Assembly: GCA_963848295.1 (NCBI GenBank) | Contig: CAWKDB010000004.1 | Coordinates: forward strand, 32,001 to 96,000 | DNA: 64,000 nt | Reading direction: 5' to 3' | Origin: an uncultured delta proteobacterium | GTDB lineage: Bacteria > Myxococcota_A > Polyangia > Haliangiales > Haliangiaceae | Shown: one piece after another, positions 1,174 through 34,848 of the stretch | Layout of the letters: every line of letters starts with the position of its first letter | How positions within the stretch are numbered: position 1 is the stretch's first letter | Translations under genes and position numbers: made by a program | Notes under the pieces: model-generated | Told to the model about the DNA's origin: nothing | Database searches by the model: none | The model's input: the letters and a program-made list of their open reading frames with translations, nothing else

Positions 1174-1189
1174 TGGAGCGGGCATTGCA
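1174..1189 (+). promoter_or_regulatory. sigma54 -24/-12 promoter
   Basis: TGGAGCGGGCATTGCA (GG-N10-GC); ATG 14 nt after the -12 C. Confidence 0.7.
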
Positions 1190-1201
1190 ACTCCGTTGAC
1201 C

Positions 1202-1669
1202 ATGGAGACCAAACCTGAACCCGAGCTCCCGCCGCGTCGCGGGTTGCGTCTGCTGCTTCCGGATCACCACCGCCGGATCGAGGCAAAATGCCGAGAGCTG
1301 CTCGCCTCGGCCTACGCCGATGATGCTCGCGAGCTCGTCACGCGCTGGTGTGAGCTCGAGGCCGAGCTCCTCGATCACATCGCCGCCGAAGAAGAAGTCA
1401 TCCTACCGAGCTATACCGAGCACGCACCTGGGGATGCGAAGCGGATCCTCGACGATCACGCGCGGATCCGCGAGCTCGTGACGCCGATCGGCGTGGAGGT
1501 CGAGCTTCACGAGATGCGCGCGGCTCGGCTGCGCCGGCTCGTCGAGGCGCTCGATGCCCATGCCGCTCACGAAGACTCCGTGATGTACCCGTGGGCGCAG
1601 CTCAACCTGCCGGCGGTCGCACAGCGCTTGTTGGCCACGCGGATCGGCCGATGGCTCGGGGGGACGTGA
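1202..1669 (+). CDS. Hemerythrin-like (HHE) domain protein
   Basis: DHH..., HIAAEEEVILP, DH, HAAHEDSVMYP: H/HxxxE pattern repeated twice. Confidence 0.85.
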   Translation: METKPEPELPPRRGLRLLLPDHHRRIEAKCRELLASAYADDARELVTRWCELEAELLDHIAAEEEVILPSYTEHAPGDAKRILDDHARIRELVTPIGVEVELHEMRAARLRRLVEALDAHAAHEDSVMYPWAQLNLPAVAQRLLATRIGRWLGGT

Positions 1670-1708
1670 GCGGTCCGTGCTGATCCGAGCGAGCATCCCC
1701 GTGCCGCG

Positions 1709-2983
1709 GTGAGCTCGCGGCAACTCCGAGAGTCGTTGAGCCTGCTTCGTACGCGCAGGTTCGGCACGTTCTGGTTCGCGACACTGCTCTCGAACATCGG
1801 GTTCTGGGCGCAGGAGGTCGCCGAACCCTGGCTCCTGCTCTCGCTCGGCGCGTCGTCGTTCCTCATCGGGCTCGACGCGTTCGTCGGCGATGCACCGGCG
1901 TGGGTGCTGACGCTCGTCGGCGGCCTGCTCGCGGACCACTTCGATCGACGCAAGATCATCACCGCGTTTCAGTCGATCCAGATGCTGTGCCCGATCGCAC
2001 TCGTGGTCTTGCTCGTGACGGGCACGGTCCAGCCATGGATGGTGATCGCGCTCTCGCTCGTGGTCGGCGTGACAGACGCGCTGTCGATGCCATCGTTTCA
2101 ATCGATCGTCCCGTCGATCGTCGAGCACGACCAGATCGGCGCCGGACTCGCGCTGAGCTCCACGCAGTTCAACGTGTCGCGGATCCTCGGCCCGGCCGTG
2201 GCCGGTCTGATGATCGCGGGAGTCGGCGTGATCGGCTGTTTCGCGATCAACGCCGTGTCGTACATCCCGTTCATCCTCGTCGCGCTGTGGATCCTGCCGC
2301 GGCACGAGCCCGCCAAGGCGCGGTTCGACCGCACCCGTCCGTTCGTCGGAATGGGAGCGATCATCCGGCAGCCGCACCTCCGCGGCGCGCTCCTCACGGT
2401 ATGCACGACGTCATTGCTCTGCGGTCCGCTGATCACGTTCTGCCCGGTCCTGATCCGCGACGCGTTTAACGGCAGCGCCGGCCGGTTCAGCCTGGCGATC
2501 GCCGCGTTCGGGATCGGCGGGCTACTCGGCGCGGTCCTCTTGCTCGGTACCGATCCCGATCGCGATCGCCGGCGGCTCAGCTCGTGGTGTGCGCTGGGCT
2601 ACGGCGCCGTCGTGATCGCTGCCGCGCTCGATCCGTGGTTCTGGGCACTGCCGGGACTCGTGCTCGCGGGCGGCCTCGCGATGACGATGAGCAATACCGC
2701 AGCGAACACGTTGATCCAGGCGACCGCGGCTCCGGAGCTCCGCGGGCAGACGGTGAGCATGTTCATGCTCGCGATCCGTGGCGGAATGGCCCTCGGGAGC
2801 ATCGCGACGGGCGTCTCGATCAGCTTGCTCGGCGTCCGCGCCGCGCTCGCGATCGACGGTCTGCTCGCCCTCGTCGCGCAGCTAACGATCGGGCGGATCT
2901 GGCTGCGATGCGAGCTTCCACTCGAACGAGCAGACCTCGGCACCCATCTTGCTTCTCGAGGCGAACGCGCAGGAGCCGCATGA
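1709..2983 (+). CDS. MFS transporter
   Basis: About 12 hydrophobic segments, [12 protein letters not shown] motif A; stop overlaps xfp ATG. Confidence 0.9.
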
Positions 2984-5340
2984 ACACGAACACCCTCGAA
3001 GACGACGAGCTCCTCGCGATCGACGCCTACTGGCGCGCCGCGAATTACCTGACCGTCGGTCAGATCTACCTGCTCGCGAATCCCCTGCTCCGGGAGCCGC
3101 TGCGGGTCGAGCACATCAAGCCGCGCCTGCTCGGACACTGGGGAACATCGCCGGGCTTGAGCCTGGTGTACGCGCACGTCAATCGAATCATCCGGAACCA
3201 CGATCTCGACGTCATCTATCTCGCCGGTCCCGGCCACGGCGGCCCCGCGATCATCGCCAACGTCTATCTCGAGGGCACGTACTCCGAGATCTATCCCGGC
3301 GTGACCGAAGACGCCGCGGGGATATTCCGCTTGTTTCGCCAGTTCTCCACACCGGGCGGAATTCCGAGTCATGTCGGCCCGACGACGCCCGGATCGATTC
3401 ACGAAGGTGGCGAGCTCGGTTACGTGCTGACCCACGCGTTCGGCGCCGTGTTCGACAATCCCGGGCTCGTCGCGGTGGCGGTGGTCGGTGATGGCGAGGC
3501 GGAGACCGCGCCGCTCGAGGGATCGTGGAAGGGAATCAAGTTCCTCAATGCGGCACGCGACGGTGCCGTGCTGCCGATTCTCCATCTCAACGGCTACAAG
3601 ATCTCGGGCCCCACGGTCCTGGGGCGCGCGACCGACGAGTCGGTCCGCAGCTTGCTCGAAGGTCACGGCTACGACGTCCACTTCGTCGCCGGCGATGATC
3701 CGATGCCCGTGCATCGCGCACTCGCGGAAACCCTCGATACGTGCGTCGCGAAGATCCGATCGATCCAGGACGCCGCACGCACGCGCGGGATCCGCGGCAC
3801 GCCACGCTGGCCTGCGATCGTCCTGCGCACGCCGAAGGGATGGACCGGCCCCAAGTTCGTCAACGGGCTTCCGGTCGAGGGCACGTTTCGCGCGCATCAG
3901 GTGCCACTCGCTGCGGTGCGCACCGATCCAGACCAGCTCTTAGCGCTCGAGAGCTGGATGCGGAGCTATCACCCGGAACAACTGTTCGACACCACCGGCC
4001 GGCTCGCGAGTCGCCTGCGCGCGCTTGCACCGACGGGCGCGCGACGAATGGGCGCGAACCCGCACGCGAACGGCGGCGGACATCACACGGCCCTCGATCT
4101 CCCCGACACCGCGCCGTACGCGCTCGAGGTCGCGCGTCCCGGCGTTGTCCGGCACGAGTCGACGCGGGCACTCGGCGAGCTGGTGCGCGACGTCTATACC
4201 AAGAATCCGACGACGTTCCGGCTGGTCTGCCCCGACGAGACCAACTCGAATCGCCTCGGCGCCGTGTTCGACGTCGACAACCGCTGCTTTCAGGAGCCGG
4301 CGATCGCGATCGACGATCACGTGTCCGCCGACGGGCGCGTGATGGAGGTCTTGAGCGAGCACAACTGCGAGGGCTGGCTCGAGGGCTATGTGCTGACCGG
4401 CCGGCACGGGCTGTTCGCGACCTACGAGGCGTTCGCGCTGGTCGTCGCATCGATGACGACCCAACACGCGAAGTGGCTCGAGATGACCGAGCGCCTGCCG
4501 TGGCGCGTCGCGGTGCCGTCGCTGAACTACCTGCTGACCTCGACCTGCTGGCGCAACGACCACAACGGGTTCTCGCATCAAGGTCCCGGCTTCATGGATA
4601 CGATCATCTCGAAGAAGGGCACGGTCGCGCGGGTCTACCTGCCGCCCGATGCCAACTGTCTGCTCTCGGTTGCGGACCACTGCCTGCGCAGCGCGAGCTA
4701 CGTCAACCTCATCATCATCGACAAGCAGCCTCAGCTGCAGTGGCTCGGCCCAGCCGCGGCGCGCGAGCACTGCGCACGGGGCGCGTCGATCTGGAGATGG
4801 GCCGGAACCGAAGGCGCCGACGAGCCGGATGTGATCCTCGCGTGCGCCGGCGATACGCCCACGCTCGAGACGCTGGCCGCTGCCGCATGGCTCCGAACGT
4901 ACGCGCCCGAGCTACGCGTGCGCGTAGTCAACGTCGTCGACCTGATGAAGCTGTTCTCGCCGCGCGAGCATCCGCACGGAATGACCGAGGCCGCGTTCGT
5001 CGATCTGTTCACGCGCGACGTCGATGTGTGTTTCTCGTTTCACGGCTATGCCGGCGCGATCCATCAGCTGCTCCACGCGCGACCGAACGCCGGGCGGTTC
5101 CACGTCCGCGGTTACAAGGAAGAAGGCACGACGACCACGCCGTTCGACATGGTCGTGCTCAACGAGACCAGCCGATATCACATCGCGATCGACGCGCTCC
5201 GGCGCAGCCGCCGGCCGGTGCCGAACGCGAAGGAGCTGACCGCGAAATGCCTCGACATGCTCGCGCGCCACGCGTCGTACGTCGCGGAGCACTTCGAGGA
5301 TCTGCCCGAGATCCGCGACTGGACGTGGCCCTCGTGCTGA
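2980..5340 (+). CDS. xfp: Xylulose-5-P/fructose-6-P phosphoketolase
   Basis: [37 protein letters not shown] (TPP), [33 protein letters not shown] before ATG 2980. Confidence 0.97.
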
Positions 5341-5363
5341 CGGTGCACCCCGCGATGTAAGCC

Positions 5364-5406
5364 CGCAGCGAGTGCGCGACTCGGAGCTGATCACGCAAGC
5401 CGTTCG
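5364..5406. promoter_or_regulatory. Tandem CGCA-N5-TGCG sites
   Basis: CGCAGCGAGTGCG at 5364 and CGCAAGCCGTTCG at 5394 (30 nt apart). Confidence 0.6.
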
Positions 5407-5435
5407 TGATTCGTCGCAGCTATCGCGCCGAGGCT

Positions 5436-5451
5436 TGGCGCGTCGCTTGCG
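5436..5451 (+). promoter_or_regulatory. sigma54 -24/-12 promoter
   Basis: TGGCGCGTCGCTTGCG; ATG 15 nt after the -12 C. Confidence 0.75.
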
Positions 5452-5464
5452 TAGGAGTCTTGCC

Positions 5465-5902
5465 ATGGATGCCGAGGCCACCCGTAGGACGCTCGTCGCA
5501 CAGCACGACAAGATCCGCGCTCACTTGAACGGGTGCAGCCTCCTGGCCCGGCTGCTCCTCGAGGGCGAGCCGGTCCGGGTCGAGCTCGACGCGGCCCTCG
5601 ATCGCCTGCGTGCCGACTTCGCGGTGCACAACGCGACCGAGACCGAGCTCGTCCGCCCGCTGCTGCACGACTCGCCGAACTGGGGCGCGGTGCTGATCGA
5701 CCGGATGCTGGAGGAGCACGTCGCCGAGCATGCCGCGTTCTGGGAGATGCTGGCTGGATCGACCGTCGAGGTCGCGGCGCGCATGGACGAGCTGATCGAC
5801 GAGCTCGACGCGCACATGGCAGCCGAAGAACGGACGTTTCTCAGCCCGGCCGTCCTTCACCCCGACGTGATCACCCGGCGTCGCCAAGAGGAGCCAACAT
5901 GA
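5465..5902 (+). CDS. Hemerythrin-like domain protein
   Basis: QHDKIR, HNATETELVRP, EEHVAEH, HMAAEERTFL. Confidence 0.8.
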   Translation: MDAEATRRTLVAQHDKIRAHLNGCSLLARLLLEGEPVRVELDAALDRLRADFAVHNATETELVRPLLHDSPNWGAVLIDRMLEEHVAEHAAFWEMLAGSTVEVAARMDELIDELDAHMAAEERTFLSPAVLHPDVITRRRQEEPT

Positions 5903-6432: not shown

Positions 6433-6446
6433 CGCCTTCCCTGCGA

Positions 6447-7199: not shown

Positions 7200-7215
7200 T
7201 GCATTCGATGTGCCC
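7200..7215 (-). promoter_or_regulatory. sigma54 -24/-12 promoter
   Basis: GGGCACATCGAATGCA on minus strand; ATG 7187 is 14 nt downstream. Confidence 0.7.
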
Positions 7216-7235
7216 GTCGAGGCGAGGGCCGCTCG

Positions 7236-7277
7236 CGCAGCGATTGCGCCCGTGAGGCGCGAGCCGCGGTTCTTGCG
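7236..7277. promoter_or_regulatory. Tandem CGCA-N5-TGCG sites between divergent promoters
   Basis: CGCAGCGATTGCG at 7236 and CGCGGTTCTTGCG at 7265. Confidence 0.6.
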
Positions 7278-7306: not shown

Positions 7307-7322
7307 AGGCACGCGGGATGCA
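7307..7322 (+). promoter_or_regulatory. sigma54 -24/-12 promoter
   Basis: AGGCACGCGGGATGCA; ATG 7335 is 14 nt downstream. Confidence 0.7.
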
Positions 7323-7334: not shown

Positions 7335-7424
7335 ATGAACCACGAAGCGCCAATGGCCCCTCGCGTTATTGACGTTGGATCCGGGCTCGGCGTCGCGGGT
7401 TGGCTCGCGGCGAACGGCGCGTAG
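7335..7424 (+). pseudogene. 29-aa ORF resembling the N-terminus of a class I SAM methyltransferase
   Basis: MNHEAPMAPRVIDVGSGLGVAGWLAANGA*; VIDVGSGLG resembles SAM motif I. Confidence 0.4.
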
Positions 7425-7430
7425 ACTGCC

Positions 7431-9083
7431 GTGGGCTCGACGACCGCAGCGCGCCCGCTGCCCGAGGTCCGGAACCTGCTCGCTCCTGATGTGACCCGGT
7501 GGCCTCTCGACTCCACCAAGCCGGTGATCGAGCTCGAAGGCGTTTCGCTCGCCTTCGGTGACAAACGCGTGCTCGATGATCTGGACCTCGCGATCGAGCC
7601 GGGGAAGACCACCGTAATCCTTGGCTGCGGCGGCTCCGGTAAATCGGTCTTGCTCAAGCTGATGATGGGGTTAATCCAACCCGATCACGGGCGAGTGCTC
7701 GCGTTCGGACGCGATCTCGCCCTCGTCTCGCCGATCGAGATGCTCGAGCTCCGCAAGCGCATGGGGATGGTGTTCCAGAACTATGCGCTGTTCGACGCGT
7801 TGTCAGTCGAGGACAACGTCGGGTTCTCGCTGGCCGAGAACTCGGGGCTTCGCCACGCCGAGATCGCTTCGCGGTCGCACGAGCTACTCGAGCTACTCGA
7901 TCTCGTGGGCAGCGAACGGATGTTGCCCGGCGAGCTGTCCGGAGGGATGCGCAAGCGAGTCAGCCTCGCACGGGCGCTGGTAGCAAATCCCGAGGTCGTC
8001 CTGTTCGACGAGCCGACGACGGGTCTGGACCCGGTGATGGTCGAACGCGTCGACGAGTTGATCAGGTTGGTGAACGCTCGGTATCGGGTCACTTCGGTGA
8101 TCATCAGTCACGACCTGACCAGCGCGAGGCGGCTGGCCGATCGCGTCGCGTTCCTCGACGGCGGCAAGATCGCGTTCACCGGCACATTTGACGAGCTGTT
8201 GGCGAGCGAGGTCGCTTCGGTCCGGAGCTTCGTCGAAGCAGCGAAGGTCTCGGCCTCTGTGGTCGAGCACCTCGAACGTCGCTCCTCGCTGGCCGAGACG
8301 CCCGTCGTCGAGCTAACCGGCGTCACCAAGTCGTTCGGCGCCAAACAGGTGCTGCGTGGCGTCGATCTCGCGATCTATCGGGGGCGAACCACCGTGCTGA
8401 TCGGCGCTAGCGGCTCCGGCAAGTCGGTCATCATCAAGCACATCTTGGGGCTGCTCAAGCCCGACAGCGGCAAGGTCCTCGCATTCGGCGAAGACGTCGG
8501 CGCGATGAACGATCTGGAGCTCGCTCGAATCCGCACCCACTTCGGGCTCGTGTTCCAGCACGCTGCGCTACTCGATTGGCTGTCGGTCTTCGACAACGTC
8601 GCGTTCCCGCTGAGAGAGCGCCCGGGCCGAACCGATCCCGACGCAGATGCGCGGGTGGCCGAAGTGCTGGATCGACTCCATCTTACAGAGATCGCGCGGC
8701 GCATGCCGGGAGAGCTCTCGCTCGGCCAGCGCAAACGGGTCGGGCTTGCTCGCGCGATCGTGACGAAGCCAGACGTCGTGATCTACGACGAGCCGACCAC
8801 GGGTCAAGATCCCATTCGCACGCTCGAGATCGACGACATGATCCAGGAGATGCAAGCGCGTTACCATCTCACGAGCATCGTGATCAGCCACGACATGGCG
8901 TCGGCGTTTCGCATCGGCGACATGATCGCGATGTTGCACGAGGGTGTGATCGTGGCGTTCGGAACGCCAGACGAGCTACGGGCTTCCAGCAACGAGCATG
9001 TCCAGCGCTTCATCCACGCCGGCGTTGGCAATTCTCCCCGCAATTCTCCCCGGCGCGCGACCGGTACGGGACAGGGCGCATGA
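7431..9083 (+). CDS. ABC ATPase with two tandem MlaF-like nucleotide-binding domains (start may be GTG 7491)
   Basis: Two sets of Walker A ([16 protein letters not shown]), LSGG/LSLG, DEPTTG(L/Q)DP and ISHD. Confidence 0.9.
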   Translation: MGSTTAARPLPEVRNLLAPDVTRWPLDSTKPVIELEGVSLAFGDKRVLDDLDLAIEPGKTTVILGCGGSGKSVLLKLMMGLIQPDHGRVLAFGRDLALVSPIEMLELRKRMGMVFQNYALFDALSVEDNVGFSLAENSGLRHAEIASRSHELLELLDLVGSERMLPGELSGGMRKRVSLARALVANPEVVLFDEPTTGLDPVMVERVDELIRLVNARYRVTSVIISHDLTSARRLADRVAFLDGGKIAFTGTFDELLASEVASVRSFVEAAKVSASVVEHLERRSSLAETPVVELTGVTKSFGAKQVLRGVDLAIYRGRTTVLIGASGSGKSVIIKHILGLLKPDSGKVLAFGEDVGAMNDLELARIRTHFGLVFQHAALLDWLSVFDNVAFPLRERPGRTDPDADARVAEVLDRLHLTEIARRMPGELSLGQRKRVGLARAIVTKPDVVIYDEPTTGQDPIRTLEIDDMIQEMQARYHLTSIVISHDMASAFRIGDMIAMLHEGVIVAFGTPDELRASSNEHVQRFIHAGVGNSPRNSPRRATGTGQGA

Positions 9084-9125
9084 CGGACGACCTCTACGAA
9101 TCGTTCACGCGACTTTGAAGCCTCG

Positions 9126-9167
9126 CGCATGTTTTGCGCCGCCGTCCCCGGCTCCGAAGGCTTTGCG
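9126..9167. promoter_or_regulatory. Tandem CGCA-N5-TGCG sites
   Basis: CGCATGTTTTGCG at 9126 and CGAAGGCTTTGCG at 9155. Confidence 0.6.
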
Positions 9168-9197: not shown

Positions 9198-9213
9198 AGG
9201 CACGTGCGATGCA
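9198..9213 (+). promoter_or_regulatory. sigma54 -24/-12 promoter
   Basis: AGGCACGTGCGATGCA; ATG 9228 is 16 nt downstream. Confidence 0.7.
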
Positions 9214-12458: not shown

Positions 12459-12474
12459 TGGCACAGAGGCTGCA
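12459..12474 (+). promoter_or_regulatory. sigma54 -24/-12 promoter
   Basis: TGGCACAGAGGCTGCA; ATG 12488 is 15 nt downstream. Confidence 0.75.
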
Positions 12475-12487: not shown

Positions 12488-12892
12488 ATGCTGATGCCTC
12501 CCATCTCTCGGTACATGACTCGTCAACCGTGGACTATCCGAAAGGACGCGACGATGGCGGAGGCGCACCACATGATGCGCCTGCACCGGATTCGACACCT
12601 TCCTGTCCTCGAAGCAGGCAAGCTCGTAGGAATCGTCACGGAGCGTGATCTCCATTTGATCGAGACCCTACCTGGCGGAGACCCAGACGCCGTGACGGTC
12701 GAGGAAGCGATGACGGTGGACGTCTACGCGGTGCATCCCGACGGCGCCGTCGACTCGATTGTCGAGAAGATGGCAGACCACAAGTACGGTTCCGCCGTCG
12801 TGCTCGACCGACAAGGCGCGGTCGAGGGCATCTTTACGACAGTGGACGCGCTGCAGGTGCTCGCCGAGGTGCTGCGGCGCGCGACCGCCTAG
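12488..12892 (+). CDS. CBS domain pair protein
   Basis: IRHLPVLEAGKLVGIVTERD and GIFTTVDAL. Confidence 0.9.
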   Translation: MLMPPISRYMTRQPWTIRKDATMAEAHHMMRLHRIRHLPVLEAGKLVGIVTERDLHLIETLPGGDPDAVTVEEAMTVDVYAVHPDGAVDSIVEKMADHKYGSAVVLDRQGAVEGIFTTVDALQVLAEVLRRATA

Positions 12893-13049
12893 CCAGCCCG
12901 ATTCGCGTCGACGCTTCGCGCACGACTTGCGCGGGCCGTGATGGCAATGCGGTCGTTGCGCGATCGCGGCCTAGCAAGATGGTCGCGCAGAAATTTCGCA
13001 CTTCCGGACGACGCGAGACCGAGCTTGGCCTGATCGACCCTCGCCGATC

Positions 13050-13277: not shown

Positions 13278-13293
13278 AGCATGCCTTGTGCCA
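13278..13293 (-). promoter_or_regulatory. sigma54 -24/-12 promoter
   Basis: TGGCACAAGGCATGCT on minus strand; ATG 13265 is 14 nt downstream. Confidence 0.75.
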
Positions 13294-19777: not shown

Positions 19778-19819
19778 CGCAGGATCTGCGGCCTTCGCGC
19801 TGTGAGCGCACGAAGTGCG
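19778..19819. promoter_or_regulatory. Tandem CGCA-N5-TGCG sites between divergent genes
   Basis: CGCAGGATCTGCG at 19778 and CGCACGAAGTGCG at 19807, both perfect. Confidence 0.7.
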
Positions 19820-19849
19820 CGAGTTCCGGCCTCGCGTGATGTAGGTGGC

Positions 19850-19865
19850 GGGCATGCCCGATGCA
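19850..19865 (+). promoter_or_regulatory. sigma54 -24/-12 promoter
   Basis: GGGCATGCCCGATGCA; followed by GAGG RBS and ATG 19890. Confidence 0.65.
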
Positions 19866-23461: not shown

Positions 23462-24334
23462 TCATCGCGGGCCCTTCGAGACGGAGGATCCGAGATGGCG
23501 TCCGGGTTGTACATCGCTAGCTTGGTCCGCGAACGCGGGCTCGAAGCTCTCGGGCGCGGCGAGATAGGCACGGAACGCGCTCATCGCCCTGCTCACGTGC
23601 CAGCCATCCGCGTAGCGGTGATCGATCGTCGCGGTGATCGGGAGGATGTCGCGCACCTCGACACGGCGATCGACGACGACCCCGCGCGCGGTGATCTCGC
23701 CGACCAGGACCAGCAGCGGCACGTCGTACATCCACGCGAGCGGTGCGAACCCCTGCGGCAACCCGAACATCCCGACGTTGGTGACCATCGCGCTGCCGAA
23801 CGGGGAACGGTGCAGCGATAGCGCGGGTACGTCTAGCTCGAGCTCCTGGGTCAGGAACGCGGTGGCCTTCAAGACACCACGCAGGAGCCAGGAAGGCGTG
23901 AGATCGAGCAGGTGCTTGGTCTGCGCGAGGTCGCGGTCGTTGCCTTGCTTCATCGCGGTGCTGCGCTCGGTCAGCTCGCGGGCGATCGCGAATGCCGGTT
24001 TCACATCGGCGTTCGCGATCGCGACGCCGGAAAGATCGTGACCCTTGGCGACCGCGGTGATGAAGAAAATATCGACCGACCGGCGCGGGCGCACGCGGCC
24101 GCGCCGAATACGCACGTTGAGATCGGGAACCTCCCGCAAGACGTGGGCGAGTGCACGACCGACGACGTGCGTCGCGGTGACGTGATGACCCGCGGCGCGC
24201 GCACGCGCGATGAACGCCAGCGTTGGTCCCGCATCGACGTCGAGCTCACCGAAGATCTGCGGATCGTCTGGTGCGTGCCACATCGCACTCGCGACTCGTC
24301 GCCAGCCCGTGAGGCGCGTGCTCGGTCGCATCAC
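23462..24334 (-). CDS. Stand-alone 2-oxoacid dehydrogenase E2-like acyltransferase catalytic domain
   Basis: FGSAMVTNVG, ITATIDHRYADG (HxxxDG); no lipoyl domain. Confidence 0.85.
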   Translation of the reverse strand: MMRPSTRLTGWRRVASAMWHAPDDPQIFGELDVDAGPTLAFIARARAAGHHVTATHVVGRALAHVLREVPDLNVRIRRGRVRPRRSVDIFFITAVAKGHDLSGVAIANADVKPAFAIARELTERSTAMKQGNDRDLAQTKHLLDLTPSWLLRGVLKATAFLTQELELDVPALSLHRSPFGSAMVTNVGMFGLPQGFAPLAWMYDVPLLVLVGEITARGVVVDRRVEVRDILPITATIDHRYADGWHVSRAMSAFRAYLAAPESFEPAFADQASDVQPGRHLGSSVSKGPR

Positions 24335-25510
24335 GAGGTCCGCTCCTTGCGCGGGATCGCGACGTCGAACGTCGTGCCGCTCGACGACGATGCGACCTCG
24401 ATCGTGCCGCGATGGAGTGCGACCAGGCTATGCACGATCGACATCCCCATCCCGGTCCCGCCCTCCTTCGTCGAGAAGAACGGCTCGTAGATCCGGGGCA
24501 ATACGTCGGCCGGGATCCCGGCACCGTCGTCGCTCACGCGGATGTGAACGTGGCCATCGACGGGAACGACAGCCACGATGACATGACCGCCGGCGGTCAC
24601 CGCTTCGATCGCGTTGTGGATCAAGCTATCGACGACCTGTCGGACCTTCGAGGCATCGATCTCGGCAACGACGGGCCCGGACGCGCCGCCGAGCGTGAGC
24701 GTCGCACCGCGCTGTATCGCCAGCGGCCGGTCGTGCTCGATCACATCGCGCACGAGGGCGACGAGGTCTTGAGACCGTAGCGCGAGTGCCTGCGGTCGCG
24801 CGAACGCAAGGAACTCGTCCAGCAAGGTCGTGAGCCGCTCGAGCTCGTGGTCCGCCAGCTCGATCGGCTCCACGAGCGTCGGATCATCACCGGCGCGACG
24901 CAGCCGGCGCTCCGCGAGCTTGAGCTGGAGCTTGGCGGAGTTGAGGGGGTTGCGCACTTCGTGTGCGAGCCCGGCGCACAGGGTCTGCATCGCCTCGACC
25001 TGCTCGATGCGGCGCTGCTGTTCGGCCGAGACCAGCCGCTCTTCCGAGTCGATCTGATATTGACGCAAGATCACGGCGAGCTCGAGGTCGAGGAGTTTGT
25101 CGACCGCGTTGCGGAAGGCATGCGCCTCCAGAGCAGCCGGACATGCGACGACGATCCGGTCGCCGTACGCGCGCCGGATGACGTTGAGCGCCGGCGACCA
25201 TGTAGTGCTGTGCGAGCCCGATCGCGACGTGGCGTCGACCGATTTGCGAGCGTTTCGCGATGAACACATCGTCGTAAGGCCCGAGCAATCCGGTCGACAT
25301 CCAATCGATCAGTGCGAGGCGCAGCCGCGCGACTTGTTCGGAGCTCGACAGGATCGCGGCCGTGCTCGCGTTCGCCAGTGCCACCGCGTAGAACGCATCG
25401 GCGATCGCCGGAAACGAAGGTGCGAGCACGGGGTGGAGCGCGACGAGCCGTTCGCGATCGTCTGCGCCGAGCGCGAGGTATGCGAGGATCTCGTCGAGGA
25501 GCTCGGTCAC
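24331..25510 (-). pseudogene. Protoglobin-coupled sensor histidine kinase with +1 frameshift (or sequencing error)
   Basis: The globin part (FY..., IGRRHVAIGLAQHYM) is in one frame; LNVIR..VDKLLDLEL..AHEVRNPLN..EPFFSTKEGGTGMG is in another. The span is 1180 nt (3n+1). Confidence 0.85.
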
Positions 25511-26925
25511 CTCTGACCATTTCGCTCGTTGCCGAGAGCGGCGTCCTTGGCCTGCACGACGTCGATTTCGGACCGCGGTGCGGCATGATACTCGTGCAGC
25601 CGATACTGGATCGTTCGCGCGCTGATGCCGAGCATCTCGGCAGCCTTCGAGGTGGAGCCTCCAGCGGCCTTCATGGTCTCGAGGATCGCGTAGCGCTCTA
25701 GCTCGGCCATCGTCGAGCCCGGAATCGGCGGGATACCCGAGGTGCCGACCGGCCGAACGTTGGGCGGGAGGTGACCGACTTCGATCTCGGGGCCGGTCGC
25801 GAGCACGATCGCGCGTTCGATCGCATTCTCGAGCTCTCGGACGTTCCCCGGCCAGTCGTACGCGACGAGCAGGTCGAGCGCCTGTGACGAGATCGCCTCG
25901 ACCGGCTTGCCGTTGTCCTTGGCATAGCGATCGACGAAGAACTTCGCGATCGCCGGAATGTCGGATCTGCGGTCGCGCAGCGGCGGCATCTCGATGTTGA
26001 CGACGTTGAGCCGGTAGAACAGATCCTCTCGGAACCGACCGCGCGCGACCTCCTCTTTGAGATCGCGATTGGTCGCCGCGATCACCCGGACGTCGACGCG
26101 GATCGTCTGCGTGCCGCCGACGCGCTCGAACTCGTGCTCCTGAAGGAAGCGGAGCAGCTTGACCTGCAGCGAGGTGGAGATCTCGCCGATCTCGTCGAGG
26201 AACAACGTGCCGCCATCGGAGAGCGAGAATCGGCCGTCCTTGCGCGCCGTCGCGCCGGTGAACGAGCCCTTCTCGTGGCCGAACAGCTCGCTCTCGAGCA
26301 AGCTTTCGGCGAGCGCGGCGCAGTGCAGCTTGATGAACGGGCCACTCGCGCGCGGCGACCGCTGATGGATCGCGTTCGCGACCAGCTCCTTGCCGGTCCC
26401 GCTCTCGCCCGTGATCAGGACGGTCGCCCGACTCGGGGCGACCTGGTCGACGATCTCGAACACGCGTTGCATCGGTGGGCTCGACCCGACCATGTTGCCG
26501 GGCGCAACACGATCGCGGACGCGCTTGCGCAGCTGTGCCGTCTCGCGGCGCATCGCCTGGTTCGCGAGCACCTTGTCGAGCACGACGAGGAGCTCGTCGA
26601 AGTTGAGCGGCTTGGTCAGATACTCCTCGGCGCCGGCGCGCATCGCCTCGAGCGCGGACTCGACCGCGCCGAAGGCGGTCATCACGACAACGGCTGGCGC
26701 GTCCTCCATCGCACGGAGCTTCTTGACCAGCTCGATGCCGTCCATGCCTGGCATCTTCAGATCGGTGATCACGACATGCGGCGCGAACCCCTCGAACTTG
26801 CCGAGCGCCTTGAACGCATCGGCCGAGGTCTCGACATCGAACCCCTCCTCGCGCAGCAGCTCGGCCAGCGCCGTACGGGCGTGAACTTCATCGTCGACGA
26901 CTAGGATGCGTCCGGTGCGGATCAT
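25507..26925 (-). CDS. NtrC-family sigma54-dependent response regulator
   Basis: REC domain, [34 protein letters not shown]-terminal HTH. Confidence 0.96.
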
Positions 26926-26937: not shown

Positions 26938-26953
26938 AGCGAGACGCGTGCCA
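26938..26953 (-). promoter_or_regulatory. sigma54 -24/-12 promoter of the activator operon
   Basis: TGGCACGCGTCTCGCT on minus strand; ATG 26925 is 14 nt downstream. Confidence 0.75.
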
Positions 26954-26983
26954 TGGAGATCCGCGGATTTGCGGGTATCAAAG

Positions 26984-27026
26984 CGCAAGACCTGCGACAC
27001 GAGCGACCTGTCGCGCAAGCCGTGCG
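26984..27026. promoter_or_regulatory. Tandem CGCA-N5-TGCG sites (candidate autoregulation)
   Basis: CGCAAGACCTGCG at 26984 and CGCAAGCCGTGCG at 27014, both perfect. Confidence 0.7.
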
Positions 27027-27059
27027 GGATTCCCACAGCCCGGCGTCGGCGTTTCAATA

Positions 27060-28867: not shown

Positions 28868-28932
28868 GTGTGGGTTCAGTGCAACTTCTCGGCGAAGCGG
28901 CATGGGACGGGGTGATGCATGCGACGCGCCGA

Positions 28933-29369: not shown

Positions 29370-30029
29370 CTACCCGATCCGCGTTTGATCGATCACCGTC
29401 TCGACACCGCGCGTGCCCCACACCGCGCCGACGATCGCCAAGCGCTCGGTCAGCGAGTCGATGTCGCCGGTCACCGTGACCTTGCCACCTTCGATATCGA
29501 GCTTCACCTTCTTGGCCTCGCGGGTTGCGTGGCGCTCGAGCGCGCCCTCGATCGCCGTGCGCAAGATCGCCGGCGAGATCGATGGCCCAGCAAGCTTGAT
29601 CTCGTTCTGGACCGCGCACACGCCAGCGAGCTGACCCACGGCGCGGGCGGCGTCTTCGCGTTGCGAAGCGACATCGACCGATCCCGACAACGTGACGACG
29701 CCATCGCTGACCGTCGTTTGAACCCGCTCCTCGGGGACCAGCACATGCCACTTCAACGAGGTGCGCGCCGCCTCGGCGATGTCGGCGTCGCTCGGCTTCG
29801 CCGCATAGAGTTTGACCTGAAGATCGTCGGCGACGTCTCGTACGCCGGCCACACGGTGTGCCGCATCGCGCGCGGCGACGCGCTTCGCCCAGCTCGCGAC
29901 GGTGCCGGTCAACGTCACGATCCCGCGATGGGCCTGGACGCCGACCTCCGTCTCGTCGACGCGCGTGTCCCACTTCAGCTCTTCGAGGACATCTTTCTTG
30001 ATCTGTGAATCGGACTTGATGGTTTGCAT
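29370..30029 (-). CDS. BON domain protein (three BON domains)
   Basis: Repeated G.VTL.G.V.S motif, LKWDTRV. Confidence 0.92.
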   Translation of the reverse strand: MQTIKSDSQIKKDVLEELKWDTRVDETEVGVQAHRGIVTLTGTVASWAKRVAARDAAHRVAGVRDVADDLQVKLYAAKPSDADIAEAARTSLKWHVLVPEERVQTTVSDGVVTLSGSVDVASQREDAARAVGQLAGVCAVQNEIKLAGPSISPAILRTAIEGALERHATREAKKVKLDIEGGKVTVTGDIDSLTERLAIVGAVWGTRGVETVIDQTRIG

Positions 30030-30041
30030 GAATTCTCGCCG

Positions 30042-30057
30042 AGCAAGTCGCGTTCCA
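30042..30057 (-). promoter_or_regulatory. sigma54 -24/-12 promoter
   Basis: TGGAACGCGACTTGCT on minus strand; ATG 30029 is 14 nt downstream. Confidence 0.8.
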
Positions 30058-30089
30058 CTGGGTCGGCGAGCTCAGCTGCATGTGGCTCG

Positions 30090-30132
30090 CGCACTCTCGG
30101 CGTCGTGACGGCGCGATCGCGCAAACGATGCG
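30090..30132. promoter_or_regulatory. Tandem CGCA-N5-TGCG sites
   Basis: CGCACTCTCGGCG at 30090 and CGCAAACGATGCG at 30120. Confidence 0.6.
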
Positions 30133-30171
30133 CGATTCTCGTAGCCCGCGCGCCAGCATTCGAGGTGGCGC

Positions 30172-30327: not shown

Positions 30328-30428
30328 TCGAGGTTTCGAGCCTTCCGGAGCCGTCGTACACTTTTCCGCACGACTGGCGTTCATCGCTGAACGGCGCGAC
30401 GGAGCTGCGCCCTCTCGGGCGATCGCAC

Positions 30429-30644
30429 TCACGCGAGCCGCGATCGCGGGACCCAGATCCCGGCCGCGCGCTGAAAGTAGCGTCTCTTCACCGCCGCCCA
30501 GGCGATCCTGTGAGCGATGGCTTCGCGATCGGCGCCGTACCGTGCGAACGCGTCGTTGAACGCCGCGCGATAGATATCTTGGGCGTGTTGCGGCAGATGC
30601 TTGCGCACGCCCACCGGGAGATTGGAATTCTTGGTGTAGGGCAC
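30429..30644 (-). CDS. chaB: ChaB family protein (second copy)
   Basis: MPYTKNSNLPVGVRKHLPQHAQDIYRAAFNDA..AHRIAWAAVKRRY. Confidence 0.9.
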   Translation of the reverse strand: MPYTKNSNLPVGVRKHLPQHAQDIYRAAFNDAFARYGADREAIAHRIAWAAVKRRYFQRAAGIWVPRSRLA

Positions 30645-30656
30645 GTGGCCAGCAGC

Positions 30657-30672
30657 AGCACGAGTCGTGCCG
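30657..30672 (-). promoter_or_regulatory. sigma54 -24/-12 promoter
   Basis: CGGCACGACTCGTGCT on minus strand; GTG 30644 is 14 nt downstream. Confidence 0.7.
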
Positions 30673-30685
30673 AGGTACGCGGCCC

Positions 30686-30701
30686 TGGAACGGTCCATGC
30701 A
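30686..30701 (+). promoter_or_regulatory. sigma54 -24/-12 promoter
   Basis: TGGAACGGTCCATGCA; ATG 30715 is 15 nt downstream. Confidence 0.7.
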
Positions 30702-30714
30702 CTCTCGAAGCACC

Positions 30715-30843
30715 ATGTCTGACAAGTTCCAACAGATTCACCAGCACGAGATCGCCGAGCGGCGCCGGGCCTCGATCTACTTCCTGGTGTTGTCGATCGC
30801 TGTGCTGATCATCATCGCGGCGTTCGCGATCGCCGTACGCTGA
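30715..30843 (+). CDS. 42-aa single-TM small protein
   Basis: MSDKFQQIHQHEIAERRRASIYFLVLSIAVLIIIAAFAIAVR*; has its own sigma54 promoter. Confidence 0.65.
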   Translation: MSDKFQQIHQHEIAERRRASIYFLVLSIAVLIIIAAFAIAVR

Positions 30844-30914
30844 CCGATCGGGTGGTCCGGCCATGCTGATAGTGCGATAGGCGCGATGCTTCAACCTGTG
30901 CGAAGGAGTGTGTC

Positions 30915-31109
30915 ATGCGACTCAACGAAGGATCGATCGACCGAGTGATGCGCATCGTCATCGGCCTCGTGCTGCTGTCTCTCGTCGTAGCCGGCCCTCA
31001 TTCGCTGTGGGGCCTGTTCGGGCTGATCCCGCTGCTCACCGGAGTCTGGGGCTTCTGCCCGCTGTACCGCGCACTCGGCATCTCGAGCTGCCGCACACGT
31101 GCTGCGTGA
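30915..31109 (+). CDS. DUF2892 (YgaP-like) membrane protein
   Basis: NEGSIDRVMR..GLIPLLTG..FCPLY..LGISSC; AAGGAG RBS. Confidence 0.88.
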   Translation: MRLNEGSIDRVMRIVIGLVLLSLVVAGPHSLWGLFGLIPLLTGVWGFCPLYRALGISSCRTRAA

Positions 31110-31157
31110 TGCCATGATCGGTCGCGCGCAATCGCGAGGAGCTCACGATTGAATGAC

Positions 31158-32330
31158 ATGCGGTGCTTGCTGACGATCAACGCGGGCTCTTACAGCCTGA
31201 AGACTGCGGTGTTCCGGGAGGACTCTCTCGAGCGACTGGTCGCCGTCGAGGTGACCGGCATCGATCACGTGGCCACCATGACATGGTCGATGGGCGGCGA
31301 TCGTCAGGTCGAGAAGCTCGCAGGCATCAGCGATCACGATACGGCCCTGTCCGCCGTACTGGAGCGGTTGCGGCAGCGATTGGGCCGAATCGAGTGGAAA
31401 GCAGTGGGCCACCGAGTCACTCACGGGTTTGACTGCCTCCAGCCGCGGATCGTCGACACCGAGCTGCGTTCGTACCTCGAAGCTCTCATTCCGCTCGCGC
31501 CGCTGCACCAGCCGCACAACCTGGCTGGGATCACGGCGGCCGAGCGCCTCGCCCCAAGCGCGTTACAAGTCGCTTGCTTCGATACGTCGTTTCACCGGAC
31601 GATTCCCGACGTCGCGCGCCGCTATGCGTTGCCGCGCGAGCTCAGCGCTGACGGCATCGAGGCCTATGGATTCCACGGGCTGTCGTACGAATACATCGCG
31701 TCGATCCTGCCGAGTCATCTCGGGCCACGCGCCGACGCACGCGTGATCGTCGCGCACCTCGGCAGCGGCGCCAGCATGTGCGCCATGCGCGAGCGCAAGT
31801 CCGTCGCGACCACCATGGGGCTCACCCCGTTGGACGGCTTGCCGATGGCAACGCGATCAGGCGCACTCGATCCCGGCGTCATCTTGTACCTGCTCGAGAC
31901 TCGCAAGATGGACGTCGCCGACGTCCGAGATCTGCTCTATCAACGCTCCGGCCTCCTCGGAGCTTCGGGCGTCAGCGACAGCATGAAGGAGCTACTCGCG
32001 TCTGCCGATCGCGGTGCCGCCGAGGCGGTGGAGTTGTTCGTGTATCGCGGCTCGCGCGCGATCGGTTCGCTCGCCGCCGCACTCGGCGGGCTCGACGCGC
32101 TCGTGTTCACCGGAGGCATCGGAGAGAACAGTGCGCCGATCCGCAGCCGCATCGTCCACCAGCTCTCCTGGCTCGGAGCCCAGATCGACGAGCGGGCTCA
32201 CGCTGACGGTCGCGCGGTGTTCAGCGACGCGTTGAGCCGGGTCTCCCTCGTCGTGTTGCCGACCGACGAGGAAGCGATGATCGCTCGCCATGTCGCCGCG
32301 CTGTTACGCGACGGCGACCACGCATCGTGA
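31158..32330 (+). CDS. ackA: Acetate/propionate kinase
   Basis: INAGSYSLK, GHRVTHG, APLHQP, FDTSFH, YGFHGLSY, HLGSGAS, TRSGALDPG, FTGGIGEN, TDEE. Confidence 0.95.
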   Translation: MRCLLTINAGSYSLKTAVFREDSLERLVAVEVTGIDHVATMTWSMGGDRQVEKLAGISDHDTALSAVLERLRQRLGRIEWKAVGHRVTHGFDCLQPRIVDTELRSYLEALIPLAPLHQPHNLAGITAAERLAPSALQVACFDTSFHRTIPDVARRYALPRELSADGIEAYGFHGLSYEYIASILPSHLGPRADARVIVAHLGSGASMCAMRERKSVATTMGLTPLDGLPMATRSGALDPGVILYLLETRKMDVADVRDLLYQRSGLLGASGVSDSMKELLASADRGAAEAVELFVYRGSRAIGSLAAALGGLDALVFTGGIGENSAPIRSRIVHQLSWLGAQIDERAHADGRAVFSDALSRVSLVVLPTDEEAMIARHVAALLRDGDHAS

Positions 32331-32377
32331 TCGTCGCGCGCGATCCTCACCGTGTGCGGTGCTCGTCGTCCGCTGCG

Positions 32378-32806
32378 TCAGAGCACCGTCCGGACCACGA
32401 ACACATTGCGGTCGGCGTGATTCACGACCTTCGCGGCGGTCGTGCCAAGCAGATGATCGATTCCGCCAAAGCCATGCGAGCCGATCACGATCACGTCGGC
32501 ATCGCGCGTGCGCGCCGCACGAACGATGCCATCCCATGGCGTCGCATAGTCCGTGAAGATCTCCTCTACCATGCCGTGACGGAGCGTACTCGCCAGCTGG
32601 TCGAGGTCCTCGTGCGCCTTGCGCTTGAGCGCGTCATCCAGGTTCGTATCCGTCGCGGCCAGCACTTCGCGCGGAAGATCGAGCGGGACGCCGATGGCGC
32701 GGAACAAGACGAGCTTCGCATCGGCGAGCTCCGCGAGCCGAGCGGCAGCGGAGAGCACGAGCCCTGCGCGGGCCGATCCATCGAGGGCGACCAGAAGGCG
32801 CTTCAT
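32378..32806 (-). CDS. Universal stress protein
   Basis: MKRLLVALDGS, DVIVIGSHG..LLGTTAAKVV. Confidence 0.93.
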   Translation of the reverse strand: MKRLLVALDGSARAGLVLSAAARLAELADAKLVLFRAIGVPLDLPREVLAATDTNLDDALKRKAHEDLDQLASTLRHGMVEEIFTDYATPWDGIVRAARTRDADVIVIGSHGFGGIDHLLGTTAAKVVNHADRNVFVVRTVL

Positions 32807-32862
32807 GGCGTCACCGCATTCGCATGCTCGACCGTGTACCGAGAGACCGGCGACATCAACAT
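32803..32862 (-). pseudogene. 19-aa leader ORF derived from a CBS gene N-terminus
   Basis: MLMSPVSRYT... versus MLMPPISRYM... of 12488-12892; its stop overlaps the USP ATG. Confidence 0.55.
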
Positions 32863-32875
32863 GAGGGATCCGAGT

Positions 32876-32891
32876 TGCATGGCGCGTGCCC
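32876..32891 (-). promoter_or_regulatory. sigma54 -24/-12 promoter
   Basis: GGGCACGCGCCATGCA on minus strand; ATG 32862 is 15 nt downstream. Confidence 0.7.
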
Positions 32892-32920
32892 GCGCGCGCG
32901 GCTCGACTCGTGTGGCACGC

Positions 32921-32963
32921 CGCAATGATTGCGCTTCGCTCTCGGGAGCGCGCTCCGCTTGCG
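32921..32963. promoter_or_regulatory. Tandem CGCA-N5-TGCG sites between divergent promoters
   Basis: CGCAATGATTGCG at 32921 and CGCTCCGCTTGCG at 32951. Confidence 0.65.
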
Positions 32964-32983
32964 CGGAGTAGCCCCCGAGGAGC

Positions 32984-32999
32984 AGGAACGAACATTGCT
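32984..32999 (+). promoter_or_regulatory. sigma54 -24/-12 promoter
   Basis: AGGAACGAACATTGCT; ATG 33012 is 14 nt downstream. Confidence 0.7.
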
Positions 33000-33011
33000 C
33001 TATCGGTCCTC

Positions 33012-33683
33012 ATGAGAAACTGTCTGCCACTCGTCGCGCTCGTGGCCGGGTGCGAAGGCTTGACCCCTGCGCCTCCGCCGTCGGTCCTGCCGTCGTTGCA
33101 GGGAGTTCTGATCGTGACCGAGTCGGACCGTGCATCACCGTCGGTGATCGACCGAATCGGCGAGTCGAGCCCCGAGTGCGTGGCAGATGCCTATGGCGGC
33201 ATCGAGCTTGTCGCCGATGTCGCGCCTAACCCCGGCAAAGAGACGGTGCTCGCCTCGTTCTCCCAGGGCGTCGTCGTCCTTGCAGCGGATGGCCACCGGA
33301 TCGCGTCGACACCCGGCTTCGACTGCACGGGCTCGCAAGACGACTTGGTTGCGGTGGAGATCGTGCGGACCTCGCTCGATACTCCGGTGATCGCCGTGGC
33401 GGCCAACCAGGGCGGTCGACGCGAGAGCTCGGCATGGCTCGAGCTCCTCGCGGTGGGCAAGTCCGATCACCTCGATCGGCTATTCGTGGGTGAGATCGAG
33501 CGATACGACGAACTGGGCACGCACACGGGGGGCGTCACGATCGTCCCGGGTGGCCTCGTGTATCGACATCCGATCGATGGCGTGAGCTTGTGGAGGTACG
33601 AGGTCCCGACTCACCGATACGTCAAGTGGCGATCGATCGAGCGCCCCAAGTCACGGGACCGTCGCTCGCCGGCTATCGACTGA
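33012..33683 (+). CDS. Hypothetical lipoprotein
   Basis: MRNCLPLVALVAGC lipobox; plausible composition. Confidence 0.7.
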   Translation: MRNCLPLVALVAGCEGLTPAPPPSVLPSLQGVLIVTESDRASPSVIDRIGESSPECVADAYGGIELVADVAPNPGKETVLASFSQGVVVLAADGHRIASTPGFDCTGSQDDLVAVEIVRTSLDTPVIAVAANQGGRRESSAWLELLAVGKSDHLDRLFVGEIERYDELGTHTGGVTIVPGGLVYRHPIDGVSLWRYEVPTHRYVKWRSIERPKSRDRRSPAID

Positions 33684-33700
33684 CCCGACTCGCTACGCTG

Positions 33701-34702
33701 TCATGCCGTCACGAGCACCGCGGATCCGTCGAACCGGCCGGCACGCAGATCGTCGAGAGCCTGATTTGCGTCGGCGAGCGCATACGTCGTTACCTTGGGC
33801 CTCAGGCCGACCGTCGGTGCGAGCGCGAGCAACTCCTCGGCATCGCGACGCGTCAGATTCGCGACCGATCGGATCGTCCGCTCTTCCCATAACAGACGAT
33901 ATGGGAACGACGGGATGTCACTCATGTGGATGCCCGCGCAGACAACGACGCCGCCCGGTGCGACCGATGCGAGCGCCAACGGAACGAGCTCGCCGACCGG
34001 TGCAAAGATGATCGCCGCATCGAGCGCCGCCGGCGCGCGTTCATCCGATGCGCCACTCCATGTCGCGCCGAGCTCGCGCGCGAACGTTTGCCCGCGTGTA
34101 TCGCCGGCGCGCGTGAACGCGAACACTTCGCGTCCTTGGTGGAGCGCGATCTGCGCGATCTGATGGCCGGCAGATCCGAAGCCGTAGATCCCGAGTCGCG
34201 CTCCGCTGCCGGCGAGGTGCAACGCGCGATACCCGATCACCGCACCGCACAACAGCGGCGCGGCCTCGACCGCGGTGTAGTCGGCCGGAATACGGAATGC
34301 GTAGCGCGCGTCCGCGACGCACGCGTCCGCGAAGCCGCCGTCGCGGTGATAGCCCGTGAACCGCGCCGACCGGCACAAGTTCTCGCGGCCCTCACGACAG
34401 TAGCGGCACGCTCCGCAGGTCCAGCCGAGCCACGGCACGCCGACCCGCTCGCCGACGTGGAAGGTCGTGACCTCGGCGCCGAGCGCCGTGATGGTCCCGA
34501 CGATCTGGTGGCCCGGCACGCGTGGCAGTCCGCCTTCGGCGAGCTCGCCATCGACCACGTGCAGATCAGTCCGGCACACCGCGCACGCCTCGATCGCGAT
34601 TCCGACGTCGTTCGGTCCGGGGACCGGCGTTGACCGCGCGCGCAAGACGAGCGGCCCGCCGATCCGCTCGAGCACCATGGCGCGGGATGAGCTGGTAGTC
34701 AT
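33701..34702 (-). CDS. Zinc-dependent alcohol dehydrogenase family protein
   Basis: CRTDLH, PGHQIVG, CGACRYC..ENLC, GIYGFG. Confidence 0.93.
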   Translation of the reverse strand: MTTSSSRAMVLERIGGPLVLRARSTPVPGPNDVGIAIEACAVCRTDLHVVDGELAEGGLPRVPGHQIVGTITALGAEVTTFHVGERVGVPWLGWTCGACRYCREGRENLCRSARFTGYHRDGGFADACVADARYAFRIPADYTAVEAAPLLCGAVIGYRALHLAGSGARLGIYGFGSAGHQIAQIALHQGREVFAFTRAGDTRGQTFARELGATWSGASDERAPAALDAAIIFAPVGELVPLALASVAPGGVVVCAGIHMSDIPSFPYRLLWEERTIRSVANLTRRDAEELLALAPTVGLRPKVTTYALADANQALDDLRAGRFDGSAVLVTA

Positions 34703-34714
34703 GACCGTCATGAG

Positions 34715-34730
34715 GGCAAGTGATGTACCG
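34715..34730 (-). promoter_or_regulatory. sigma54 -24/-12 promoter
   Basis: CGGTACATCACTTGCC on minus strand; ATG 34702 is 14 nt downstream. Confidence 0.7.
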
Positions 34731-34832
34731 AGCCGACCATGCAACGCGCACTCGGTCAACGTACGTTCTGCATCGCGGCATCTGCCATGCGCATATTTCG
34801 CGCGAACGCGATCGCAGCAAGCTCCCGACGAA

Positions 34833-34848
34833 TGGCTCGGGTCGTGCA
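34833..34848 (+). promoter_or_regulatory. sigma54 -24/-12 promoter
   Basis: TGGCTCGGGTCGTGCA; ATG 34861 is 14 nt downstream; CGCATATTTCGCG at 34790. Confidence 0.65.

Follow-up and report, generated by a model that had tools for sequence, protein, structure and literature searches.

We analyzed a 64,000-nucleotide stretch (the window) of contig CAWKDB010000004.1 (positions 32,001 to 96,000, forward strand) from assembly GCA_963848295.1 of an uncultured delta proteobacterium. Here sigma54 promoters sit so close to start codons that the predicted mRNAs would have no leader. The same short arrangement recurs across the genome, where it covers about 60% of the strong intergenic sigma54 motifs. 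Our reading, to which we give a probability of roughly 0.7, is that in the Haliangiales and part of the Polyangiales, myxobacteria that abound in soil and have dozens of sigma54 activators, most enhancer-dependent sigma54 transcription is strictly leaderless, with the A of the AUG 14 nt past the C of the −12 element (C+14), and that this trait was gained or lost within the Myxococcota. Sigma54 promoters, leaderless mRNAs, and the NmpR regulon have all been described before, but in the literature searched we found no earlier description of a genome-scale coupling of sigma54 initiation to leaderless translation. What we newly contribute is a calibration of the transcription start site (TSS), a proposed NmpR, and a test showing that the trait is not specific to one regulon.

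Sigma54 elements and their distance to start codons

A preliminary description of the window had listed sixteen GG-N10-GC elements and read them as sigma54 promoters. All sixteen are present where they had been placed (each is named here by the base 5′ of its GG), and all have a TGGCAC-N5-TTGC-like consensus with GG and GC 10 bp apart. They score 9.3 to 16.4 bits with a position weight matrix (PWM) trained on sites outside the window, and this score, the boxes upstream, and the presence of rpoN support the promoter assignment. Measured from the −12 C, the start codon also lies exactly as far away as claimed: 14 nt in ten cases (1174, 7215, 7307, 13293, 26953, 30057, 30672 [a GTG], 32984, 34730, and 34833), 15 nt in four (5436, 12459, 30686, and 32891), 16 nt at 9198, and 26 nt at 19850. 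This last was the described exception with a GAGG ribosome-binding site, which indeed lies 8 nt 5′ of the ATG; an in-frame GTG also stands at +17. The PWM adds three sites, at 28931 on the minus strand (14 nt), 2938 on the plus strand (28 nt), and 63489 on the minus strand (16 nt). One 35-kb bin holds 11 strong sigma54 sites, against 1.3 expected. The elements, with predicted starts, are as follows.

1174–1188, plus: sigma54 element; ATG 1202 at C+14, hemerythrin gene 1202–1669
5436–5450, plus: sigma54 element; ATG 5465 at C+15, hemerythrin gene
7201–7215, minus: sigma54 element; ATG 7187 at C+14, product with an N-terminal lipoprotein-type signal peptide
7307–7321, plus: sigma54 element; ATG 7335 at C+14, 29-codon open reading frame (ORF), then ABC ATPase ORF 7431–9083
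9198–9212, plus: sigma54 element; ATG 9228 at C+16, HlyD/RND adaptor operon
12459–12473, plus: sigma54 element without upstream NmpR box; ATG 12488 at C+15, CBS-domain gene
13279–13293, minus: sigma54 element without upstream NmpR box; ATG 13265 at C+14, ChaB gene
19850–19864, plus: sigma54 element, the exception with a leader; ATG 19890 at C+26, preceded by GAGG (or else GTG at +17), SPFH/band 7 operon
26939–26953, minus: sigma54 element; ATG 26925 at C+14, predicted autoregulated nmpR promoter
30043–30057, minus: sigma54 element; ATG 30029 at C+14, BON-domain gene, start in agreement with homologue N-termini
30658–30672, minus: sigma54 element without NmpR box, back to back with 30686; GTG 30644 at C+14, ChaB gene
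30686–30700, plus: sigma54 element without NmpR box; ATG 30715 at C+15, 42-aa membrane peptide
32877–32891, minus: sigma54 element; ATG 32862 at C+15, 19-codon ORF, its stop in an ATGA overlap with the beginning of the USP gene 32378–32806
32984–32998, plus: sigma54 element; ATG 33012 at C+14, product with an N-terminal lipoprotein-type signal peptide
34716–34730, minus: sigma54 element; ATG 34702 at C+14, Zn alcohol dehydrogenase
34833–34847, plus: sigma54 element; ATG 34861 at C+14, 78-aa ORF, then GNAT/acyl-CoA synthetase ORF
2938–2952, plus: extra sigma54-like element; ATG 2980 at C+28, phosphoketolase
28917–28931, minus: extra sigma54 element; ATG 28903 at C+14, acyltransferase
63475–63489, minus: extra sigma54 element outside the island; ATG 63459 at C+16

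Among 3,432 operon-first genes of the whole genome, 141 have a motif 14 to 15 nt before the ATG, and in the same genes control spacings gave 3 (12 to 13 nt), 5 (20 to 21 nt), 7 (30 to 31 nt), and 6 (40 to 41 nt). Five shuffles gave 1 to 3 genes at 14 to 15 nt, and among operon-internal genes only 1 of 1,138 has the motif there. The spacing is thus not equally frequent before random genes, and the controls and shuffles rule out chance or a GC artifact. Counted by distance from the C (threshold 8), in-frame ATGs number 8 at 13 nt, 126 at 14, 60 at 15, 19 at 16, 21 at 17, and 12 at 18, over a background of about 5. The left edge of this histogram is sharp: across 151 genomes of the class, distances of 11 to 13 nt stay at background apart from one repeated element, which rules out a shorter spacing in relatives. 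Among 327 strong intergenic motifs, the start lies at C+13 to C+18 in 194 and 19 to 300 nt away in 91, and 42 have none; several motifs of the latter two groups also have, at +14, an ATG overlooked by the gene model.

Could these be copies of one promoter? The 154 genes at 14 to 15 nt fall into 139 families, which excludes that possibility, and many begin with a signal peptide; the cases are therefore independent and their starts credible. A closer look at one family comes from the BON gene at 30029, for which 30 homologue rows were examined and 21 have a good promoter. In these 21 the start is at C+14 to C+17 in 11 (including the query and one paralogue), at C+34 to C+93 in 9, and unassigned in 1, with none at 18 to 33. 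A separate curiosity is genome G547, in the sample from the class Polyangia, where 31 near-identical copies of a sigma54-like motif have an ATG at C+13; they probably belong to the end of a mobile element that is repeated there.

The genome (7.78 Mb, 68% GC) has a single canonical rpoN copy, with Region I and the RpoN box. The protein is at most 93% identical to RpoN of Kofleriaceae metagenome-assembled genomes (MAGs) and clusters with them, which places the organism in the Kofleriaceae of the Myxococcota. PF00158, the sigma54 activator domain, has 77 matches, about 63 of them strong or full domains; several activators outside the window are split.

One set of 301 Myxococcota genomes supplied strict-pattern matches both at 14 to 15 nt and, for comparison, at 20 to 27 nt; because relatives among them do not count as independent samples, the numbers are descriptive. 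The organism's own family has 189 versus 59 in 6 genomes (12.8-fold per spacing). Family f3 has 265 versus 154 in 23 genomes (6.9-fold, owing to seven genomes that have 22 to 34 matches each), f4 has 116 versus 117 in 18 (4-fold), and f32 has 28 versus 166 in 18 (0.7-fold). In a quick RpoN tree with one genome per family, f3 and f4 group with the Polyangiales. Kofleriaceae and relatives have 17 to 58 matches per genome, and a Haliangium MAG has 8. As raw counts with no control spacing, the Myxococcales have 154 matches in 61 genomes (maximum 11) and the Desulfobacterota 49 in 101 (maximum 4). The trait is strong in the Kofleriaceae and some Polyangiales, and weak in the Myxococcales and Desulfobacterota.

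Transcription start and leaderless reading

Where does transcription begin at these promoters? We calibrated the TSS on leadered sigma54 promoters by the pyrimidine-purine (YR) step. Of these promoters, 37 of 84 have YR at C+13/C+14 (background 0.23, p = 2e-5), with YA enriched at +14 and +15. After removal of sites with an ATG or GTG at +6 to +21, YR falls at C+14 in 24 of 58 (p = 5e-4), while +12 (11) and +13 (12) equal background. This peak coincides with the A of the AUG in the short class, so the TSS is probably on that A. In S. meliloti, TSSs mapped behind TGGCACG promoters are found at C+14, +14, +11, +13, and +13 (PMC3616915, Table S10; we kept the 5 of 9 TGGCACG rows with real TSSs and dropped 4 “virtual” ones), which puts C+14 within the real range. 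That source and PMC4591121, PMC6028130, PMC11841059, and PMC12754779 below are cited from the parts of their text available to us. None of the tRNA and tmRNA genes of this genome has a strong sigma54 motif usable as a TSS calibrator.

Translation signals point the same way. A Shine-Dalgarno (SD) sequence precedes 4 of 137 short-class genes, compared with 31 of 42 leadered sigma54 ATG genes and 116 of 325 operon-internal genes (background 6.8%). At 14 nt the starts are 93 ATG and 12 GTG (93/105 ATG), and at 15 nt 44 of 49 are ATG, with TTG at background; the leadered class has 42 ATG, 16 GTG, and 5 TTG. The base before the ATG at 14 nt is a pyrimidine in 82 of 93. Fifteen of the sixteen listed promoters had been described as apparently driving leaderless mRNAs, and SD depletion, AUG bias, and the C+14 initiator signal lend that description indirect support. 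On these signals the short-class sigma54 mRNAs of this genome are quite likely strictly leaderless, with the A of the AUG as their first base, at C+14 and sometimes C+15. RNA polymerase would start on that A, 14 (sometimes 15) bases past the −12 C, and ribosomes would load at the 5′-terminal AUG without an SD sequence, as in known leaderless translation.

Several points weigh against this reading. A pyrimidine before the ATG is also frequent in SD genes (78 of 118). The YR peak accounts for only about 40% of leadered sites, and its excess at +15 is weak (p ~0.1 at distances of at least 22 nt). Four Myxococcales genomes gave YR counts of 16 at +12, 14 at +13, and 20 at +14, which are small and uninformative. 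Two of the sixteen ATGs open short ORFs ahead of the real gene (29 codons at 7335, 19 codons at 32862), and gene starts came from our own simple hexamer gene model (6,718 genes). Finally, the convention of textbooks and of E. coli work puts the TSS at C+12, 19 bp from the motif center (PMC4591121), which would give leaders of 2 to 3 nt.

That last point leads to the nearest alternative, in which the same sigma54 promoters start at the canonical C+12 or C+13 and make near-leaderless mRNAs with leaders of 1 to 3 nt, still translated without SD. The E. coli convention speaks for it, as do the glmY 5′ end at C+13 (PMC4591121), the S. meliloti range of C+11 to C+14 (PMC3616915), and the leadered Myxococcota genome G062, where YR is highest at +13 (1 at +12, 19 at +13, 13 at +14); small shoulders at 16 to 18 nt imply that short leaders exist. 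In the genome itself, however, YR at +12 and +13 is at background and peaks at +14, and a TSS at +12 would predict zero-leader genes at 12 to 13 nt, positions that are empty here and across the class. We consider this alternative unlikely. Far less probable is that the motifs are not working promoters at all, with transcription coming from further upstream and sigma54 acting as a roadblock at the start region, or with the motif serving as an RNA-level translation signal. E. coli does have many non-initiating sigma54 binding sites (PMC4591121), but here enhancer boxes lie at fixed helical distances upstream, and both the initiator signal and the layout of GG-N10-GC in two blocks are what a promoter would show; an RNA signal should turn up before operon-internal genes too, of which 1 of 1,138 has the motif. 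Strictly leaderless initiation at C+14 remains the more likely reading.

Some features of the starts stand apart from this question. The sigma54 histogram shoulder at +17 and a −15 peak of the sigmaA TANNNT box could mean a favored 3-nt leader. One in-frame stop separates the 7335–7430 ORF (plus) from the ABC ATPase ORF 7431–9083 and could be a nonsense change, an assembly error, or the end of a leader peptide. The 19-codon ORF 32803–32862 (minus) is similar to the N-terminal part of the CBS protein at 12488, and the USP gene has no obvious SD; this ORF may be what remains of a gene and, through translational coupling, may feed the USP gene.

A proposed NmpR-type island and the question of stress

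The window is dense in sigma54 promoters because, most likely, it holds an NmpR-type low-oxygen regulon with an autoregulated activator, as its gene content and boxes suggest. Its products include hemerythrins, CBS, USP, BON, ChaB, and SPFH proteins, alcohol dehydrogenase, acetate kinase, phosphoketolase, and transporters, and the same window encodes an NtrC-family activator and a protoglobin kinase:

24331–25510, minus: protoglobin-coupled histidine kinase, NmpU/AfGcHK-like (best PDB match 5OHE, E 2e-18)
25507–26925, minus: NtrC-family sigma54 activator, putative NmpR orthologue (57 to 58% to Myxococcales homologues), predicted leaderless

Orthology of the activator is based on one-way best matches and synteny: the best matches (57 to 58%; next best 48 to 50%) adjoin a single protoglobin gene in G343, G357, and G378, and G342, one of the five genomes searched, has no such close match.

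When we searched de novo for dyads upstream of the promoters in the window, CGCA-N5-TGCG came up in 10 of 18 regions and GCGCA-N5-TGCGC in 6; this longer form is the consensus described for M. xanthus NmpR (PMC11841059). Genome-wide, NmpR-type boxes cluster 36 to 39 and 65 to 69 bp upstream of the promoter, in agreement with the 14- to 15-bp spacing of M. xanthus box pairs (PMC11841059). At nine of the sixteen listed sites, a box with no more than 1 mismatch lies at one of these distances (null 0.5%), and 3 more sites have one elsewhere within 25 to 140 bp. The boxes, given without strand, are as follows.

1056–1070: NmpR-type box, perfect; center 112 bp upstream of the GG of the 1174 promoter
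5363–5377: NmpR-type box, 1 mismatch; 67 bp upstream of the 5436 promoter
7235–7249: NmpR-type box, perfect; between the divergent 7215 and 7307 promoters
9125–9139: NmpR-type box, perfect; 67 bp upstream of the 9198 promoter
19806–19820: NmpR-type box, perfect; 38 bp upstream of the 19850 promoter
26983–26997 and 27013–27027: NmpR-type box pair, 15 bp apart; 38 and 68 bp upstream of the 26953 promoter
30119–30133: NmpR-type box, perfect; 70 bp upstream of the 30057 promoter
32920–32964: NmpR-type box pair, centers 32927 and 32957; 37 and 67 bp upstream of 32891, between divergent promoters
34789–34803: NmpR-type box, 1 mismatch; 67 bp from 34730 and 38 bp from 34833

The idea that the sixteen promoters form one whole regulon is supported for most of them (12 of 16). 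For the other four (12459, 13293, 30672, and 30686) it lacks support, as the 25 to 140 bp upstream of each contain no NmpR box with 1 mismatch or fewer. A further point against the proposed circuit is that the globin and kinase parts of 24331–25510 lie in different frames in the assembly; this split, and the split activators elsewhere, suggest assembly indel errors. In the circuit that we propose, the protoglobin kinase would sense O2 and relay the signal to the NmpR orthologue (25507–26925), which would recognize GCGCA-N5-TGCGC enhancers some 38 and 67 bp ahead of its targets and would open the sigma54 promoters of hemerythrin, USP, BON, alcohol dehydrogenase, and transport genes as well as its own.

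Among neighboring observations, a perfect NmpR-type box at 12918–12932 sits in the gap where the CBS and ChaB genes converge at their 3′ ends, upstream of no promoter that we found. The back-to-back promoters at 30658–30700 are 14 bp apart, a space too small for an enhancer, and have no NmpR box. Further sigma54-dense islands lie at C10:1.855–1.925 Mb, 2.52–2.59 Mb, and 1.61 Mb, at C4:5–30 kb, and at C11:345–349 kb, several with NmpR boxes; by eye, we take some of their gene products to be hydrogenase, HemN, and USP. A joint box-plus-promoter pattern was dropped as noise, since five Myxococcales genomes gave 15 matches against 35 in the reversed control.

It is tempting to see leaderless mRNAs as a device of this hypoxia regulon that favors translation under stress, as had been proposed. 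The window genes are typical of hypoxia and stress, 15 of the 16 listed sites are of the short type, and the orthologous CBS promoter in G378 is leadered (C+47 with SD), so the architecture changed between lineages. However, the short-spacing fraction is alike with and without an NmpR box (21 of 31 versus 225 of 386, Fisher p = 0.35; 17 of 24 versus 176 of 261 at a stricter threshold, p = 0.82), the trait extends over 139 unrelated families, and BON homologues of one genus flip between the two architectures. SigmaA promoters show it as well: a TANNNT box lies 12 to 17 nt before the ATG in 85 of 371 unambiguous operon-first genes (8.5 expected), with peaks at −12/−13 and −15. The cell thus appears to use leaderless starts generally, beside SD-led ones. 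With leaderless sigmaA genes and an equal fraction without a box, the stress-translation idea is unsupported, and a stress adaptation specific to the hypoxia regulon is improbable.

Known systems and implications

The E. coli sigma54 set (Bonocora et al. 2015, PMC4591121) shares with this genome the GG-N10-GC motif, a single RpoN, and activator dependence, which we presume here. In contrast, all 41 of its protein-coding intergenic-sense sites are at least 18 nt from the gene, whereas 194 of 327 motifs here have a start at C+13 to C+18. The closest likeness in leaderless genes is with GeneMarkS-2 group C (Actinobacteria, Deinococcus-Thermus; PMC6028130), where the promoter also abuts an SD-free, AUG-biased start, as the TANNNT box at −12/−13 does here. 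Group C is defined by the Pribnow (−10) box and is rare among Proteobacteria, at 5.6% (PMC6028130), whereas here sigma54 adds about 190 such starts; “sigma” and “Myxo” are absent from the text of that source. Leaderless mRNAs of B. japonicum and C. jejuni have −10 boxes. In myxobacteria, leaderless transcription has been suggested for M. xanthus pexR (PMC12754779), a single gene with a sigmaA-type promoter. The word “leaderless” occurs nowhere in a 2025 cross-phylum sigma54 survey (PMC12316311), and a literature search that included RpoN and myxobacteria, with thin coverage of subscription papers, found no publication on sigma54-driven leaderless transcription.

The island resembles M. xanthus NmpRSTU (PMC11841059) in its GCGCA-N5-TGCGC boxes about 15 bp apart, sigma54 promoter, autoregulated nmpR, protoglobin kinase, and CBS, USP, and hemerythrin targets, and its kinase can be likened to AfGcHK (PDB 5OHE). 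It differs from NmpRSTU in that the genome has a second protoglobin kinase and NmpR-like activator (C10:4.211–4.213 Mb). In G378, of the Myxococcales, the nmp-operon promoter is leadered, with its ATG at C+47, an SD, and boxes at 50 and 79 bp; here the boxes are at 38 and 67 bp and most targets are predicted to be leaderless.

Leaderless transcription is known almost entirely from sigma70-type −10 promoters, and sigma54 genes of model organisms have SD leaders. If our reading is confirmed, a lineage with about 60 activators controls about 200 promoters through the enhancer alone, with no 5′ untranslated region on which riboswitches, small RNAs, or SD tuning could act. This bears on the transfer of Polyangia genes and promoters to Myxococcus or E. 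coli hosts. The fixed 14-nt rule would also be a yardstick by which to place start codons, TSSs, and whole sigma54 regulons of uncultured Kofleriaceae, for which GeneMarkS-2 group C, in the available text, uses a −10 box. The proposed island would extend the NmpR hypoxia regulon to the Haliangiales, with many new predicted targets, and these predictions are directly testable in cultured relatives.

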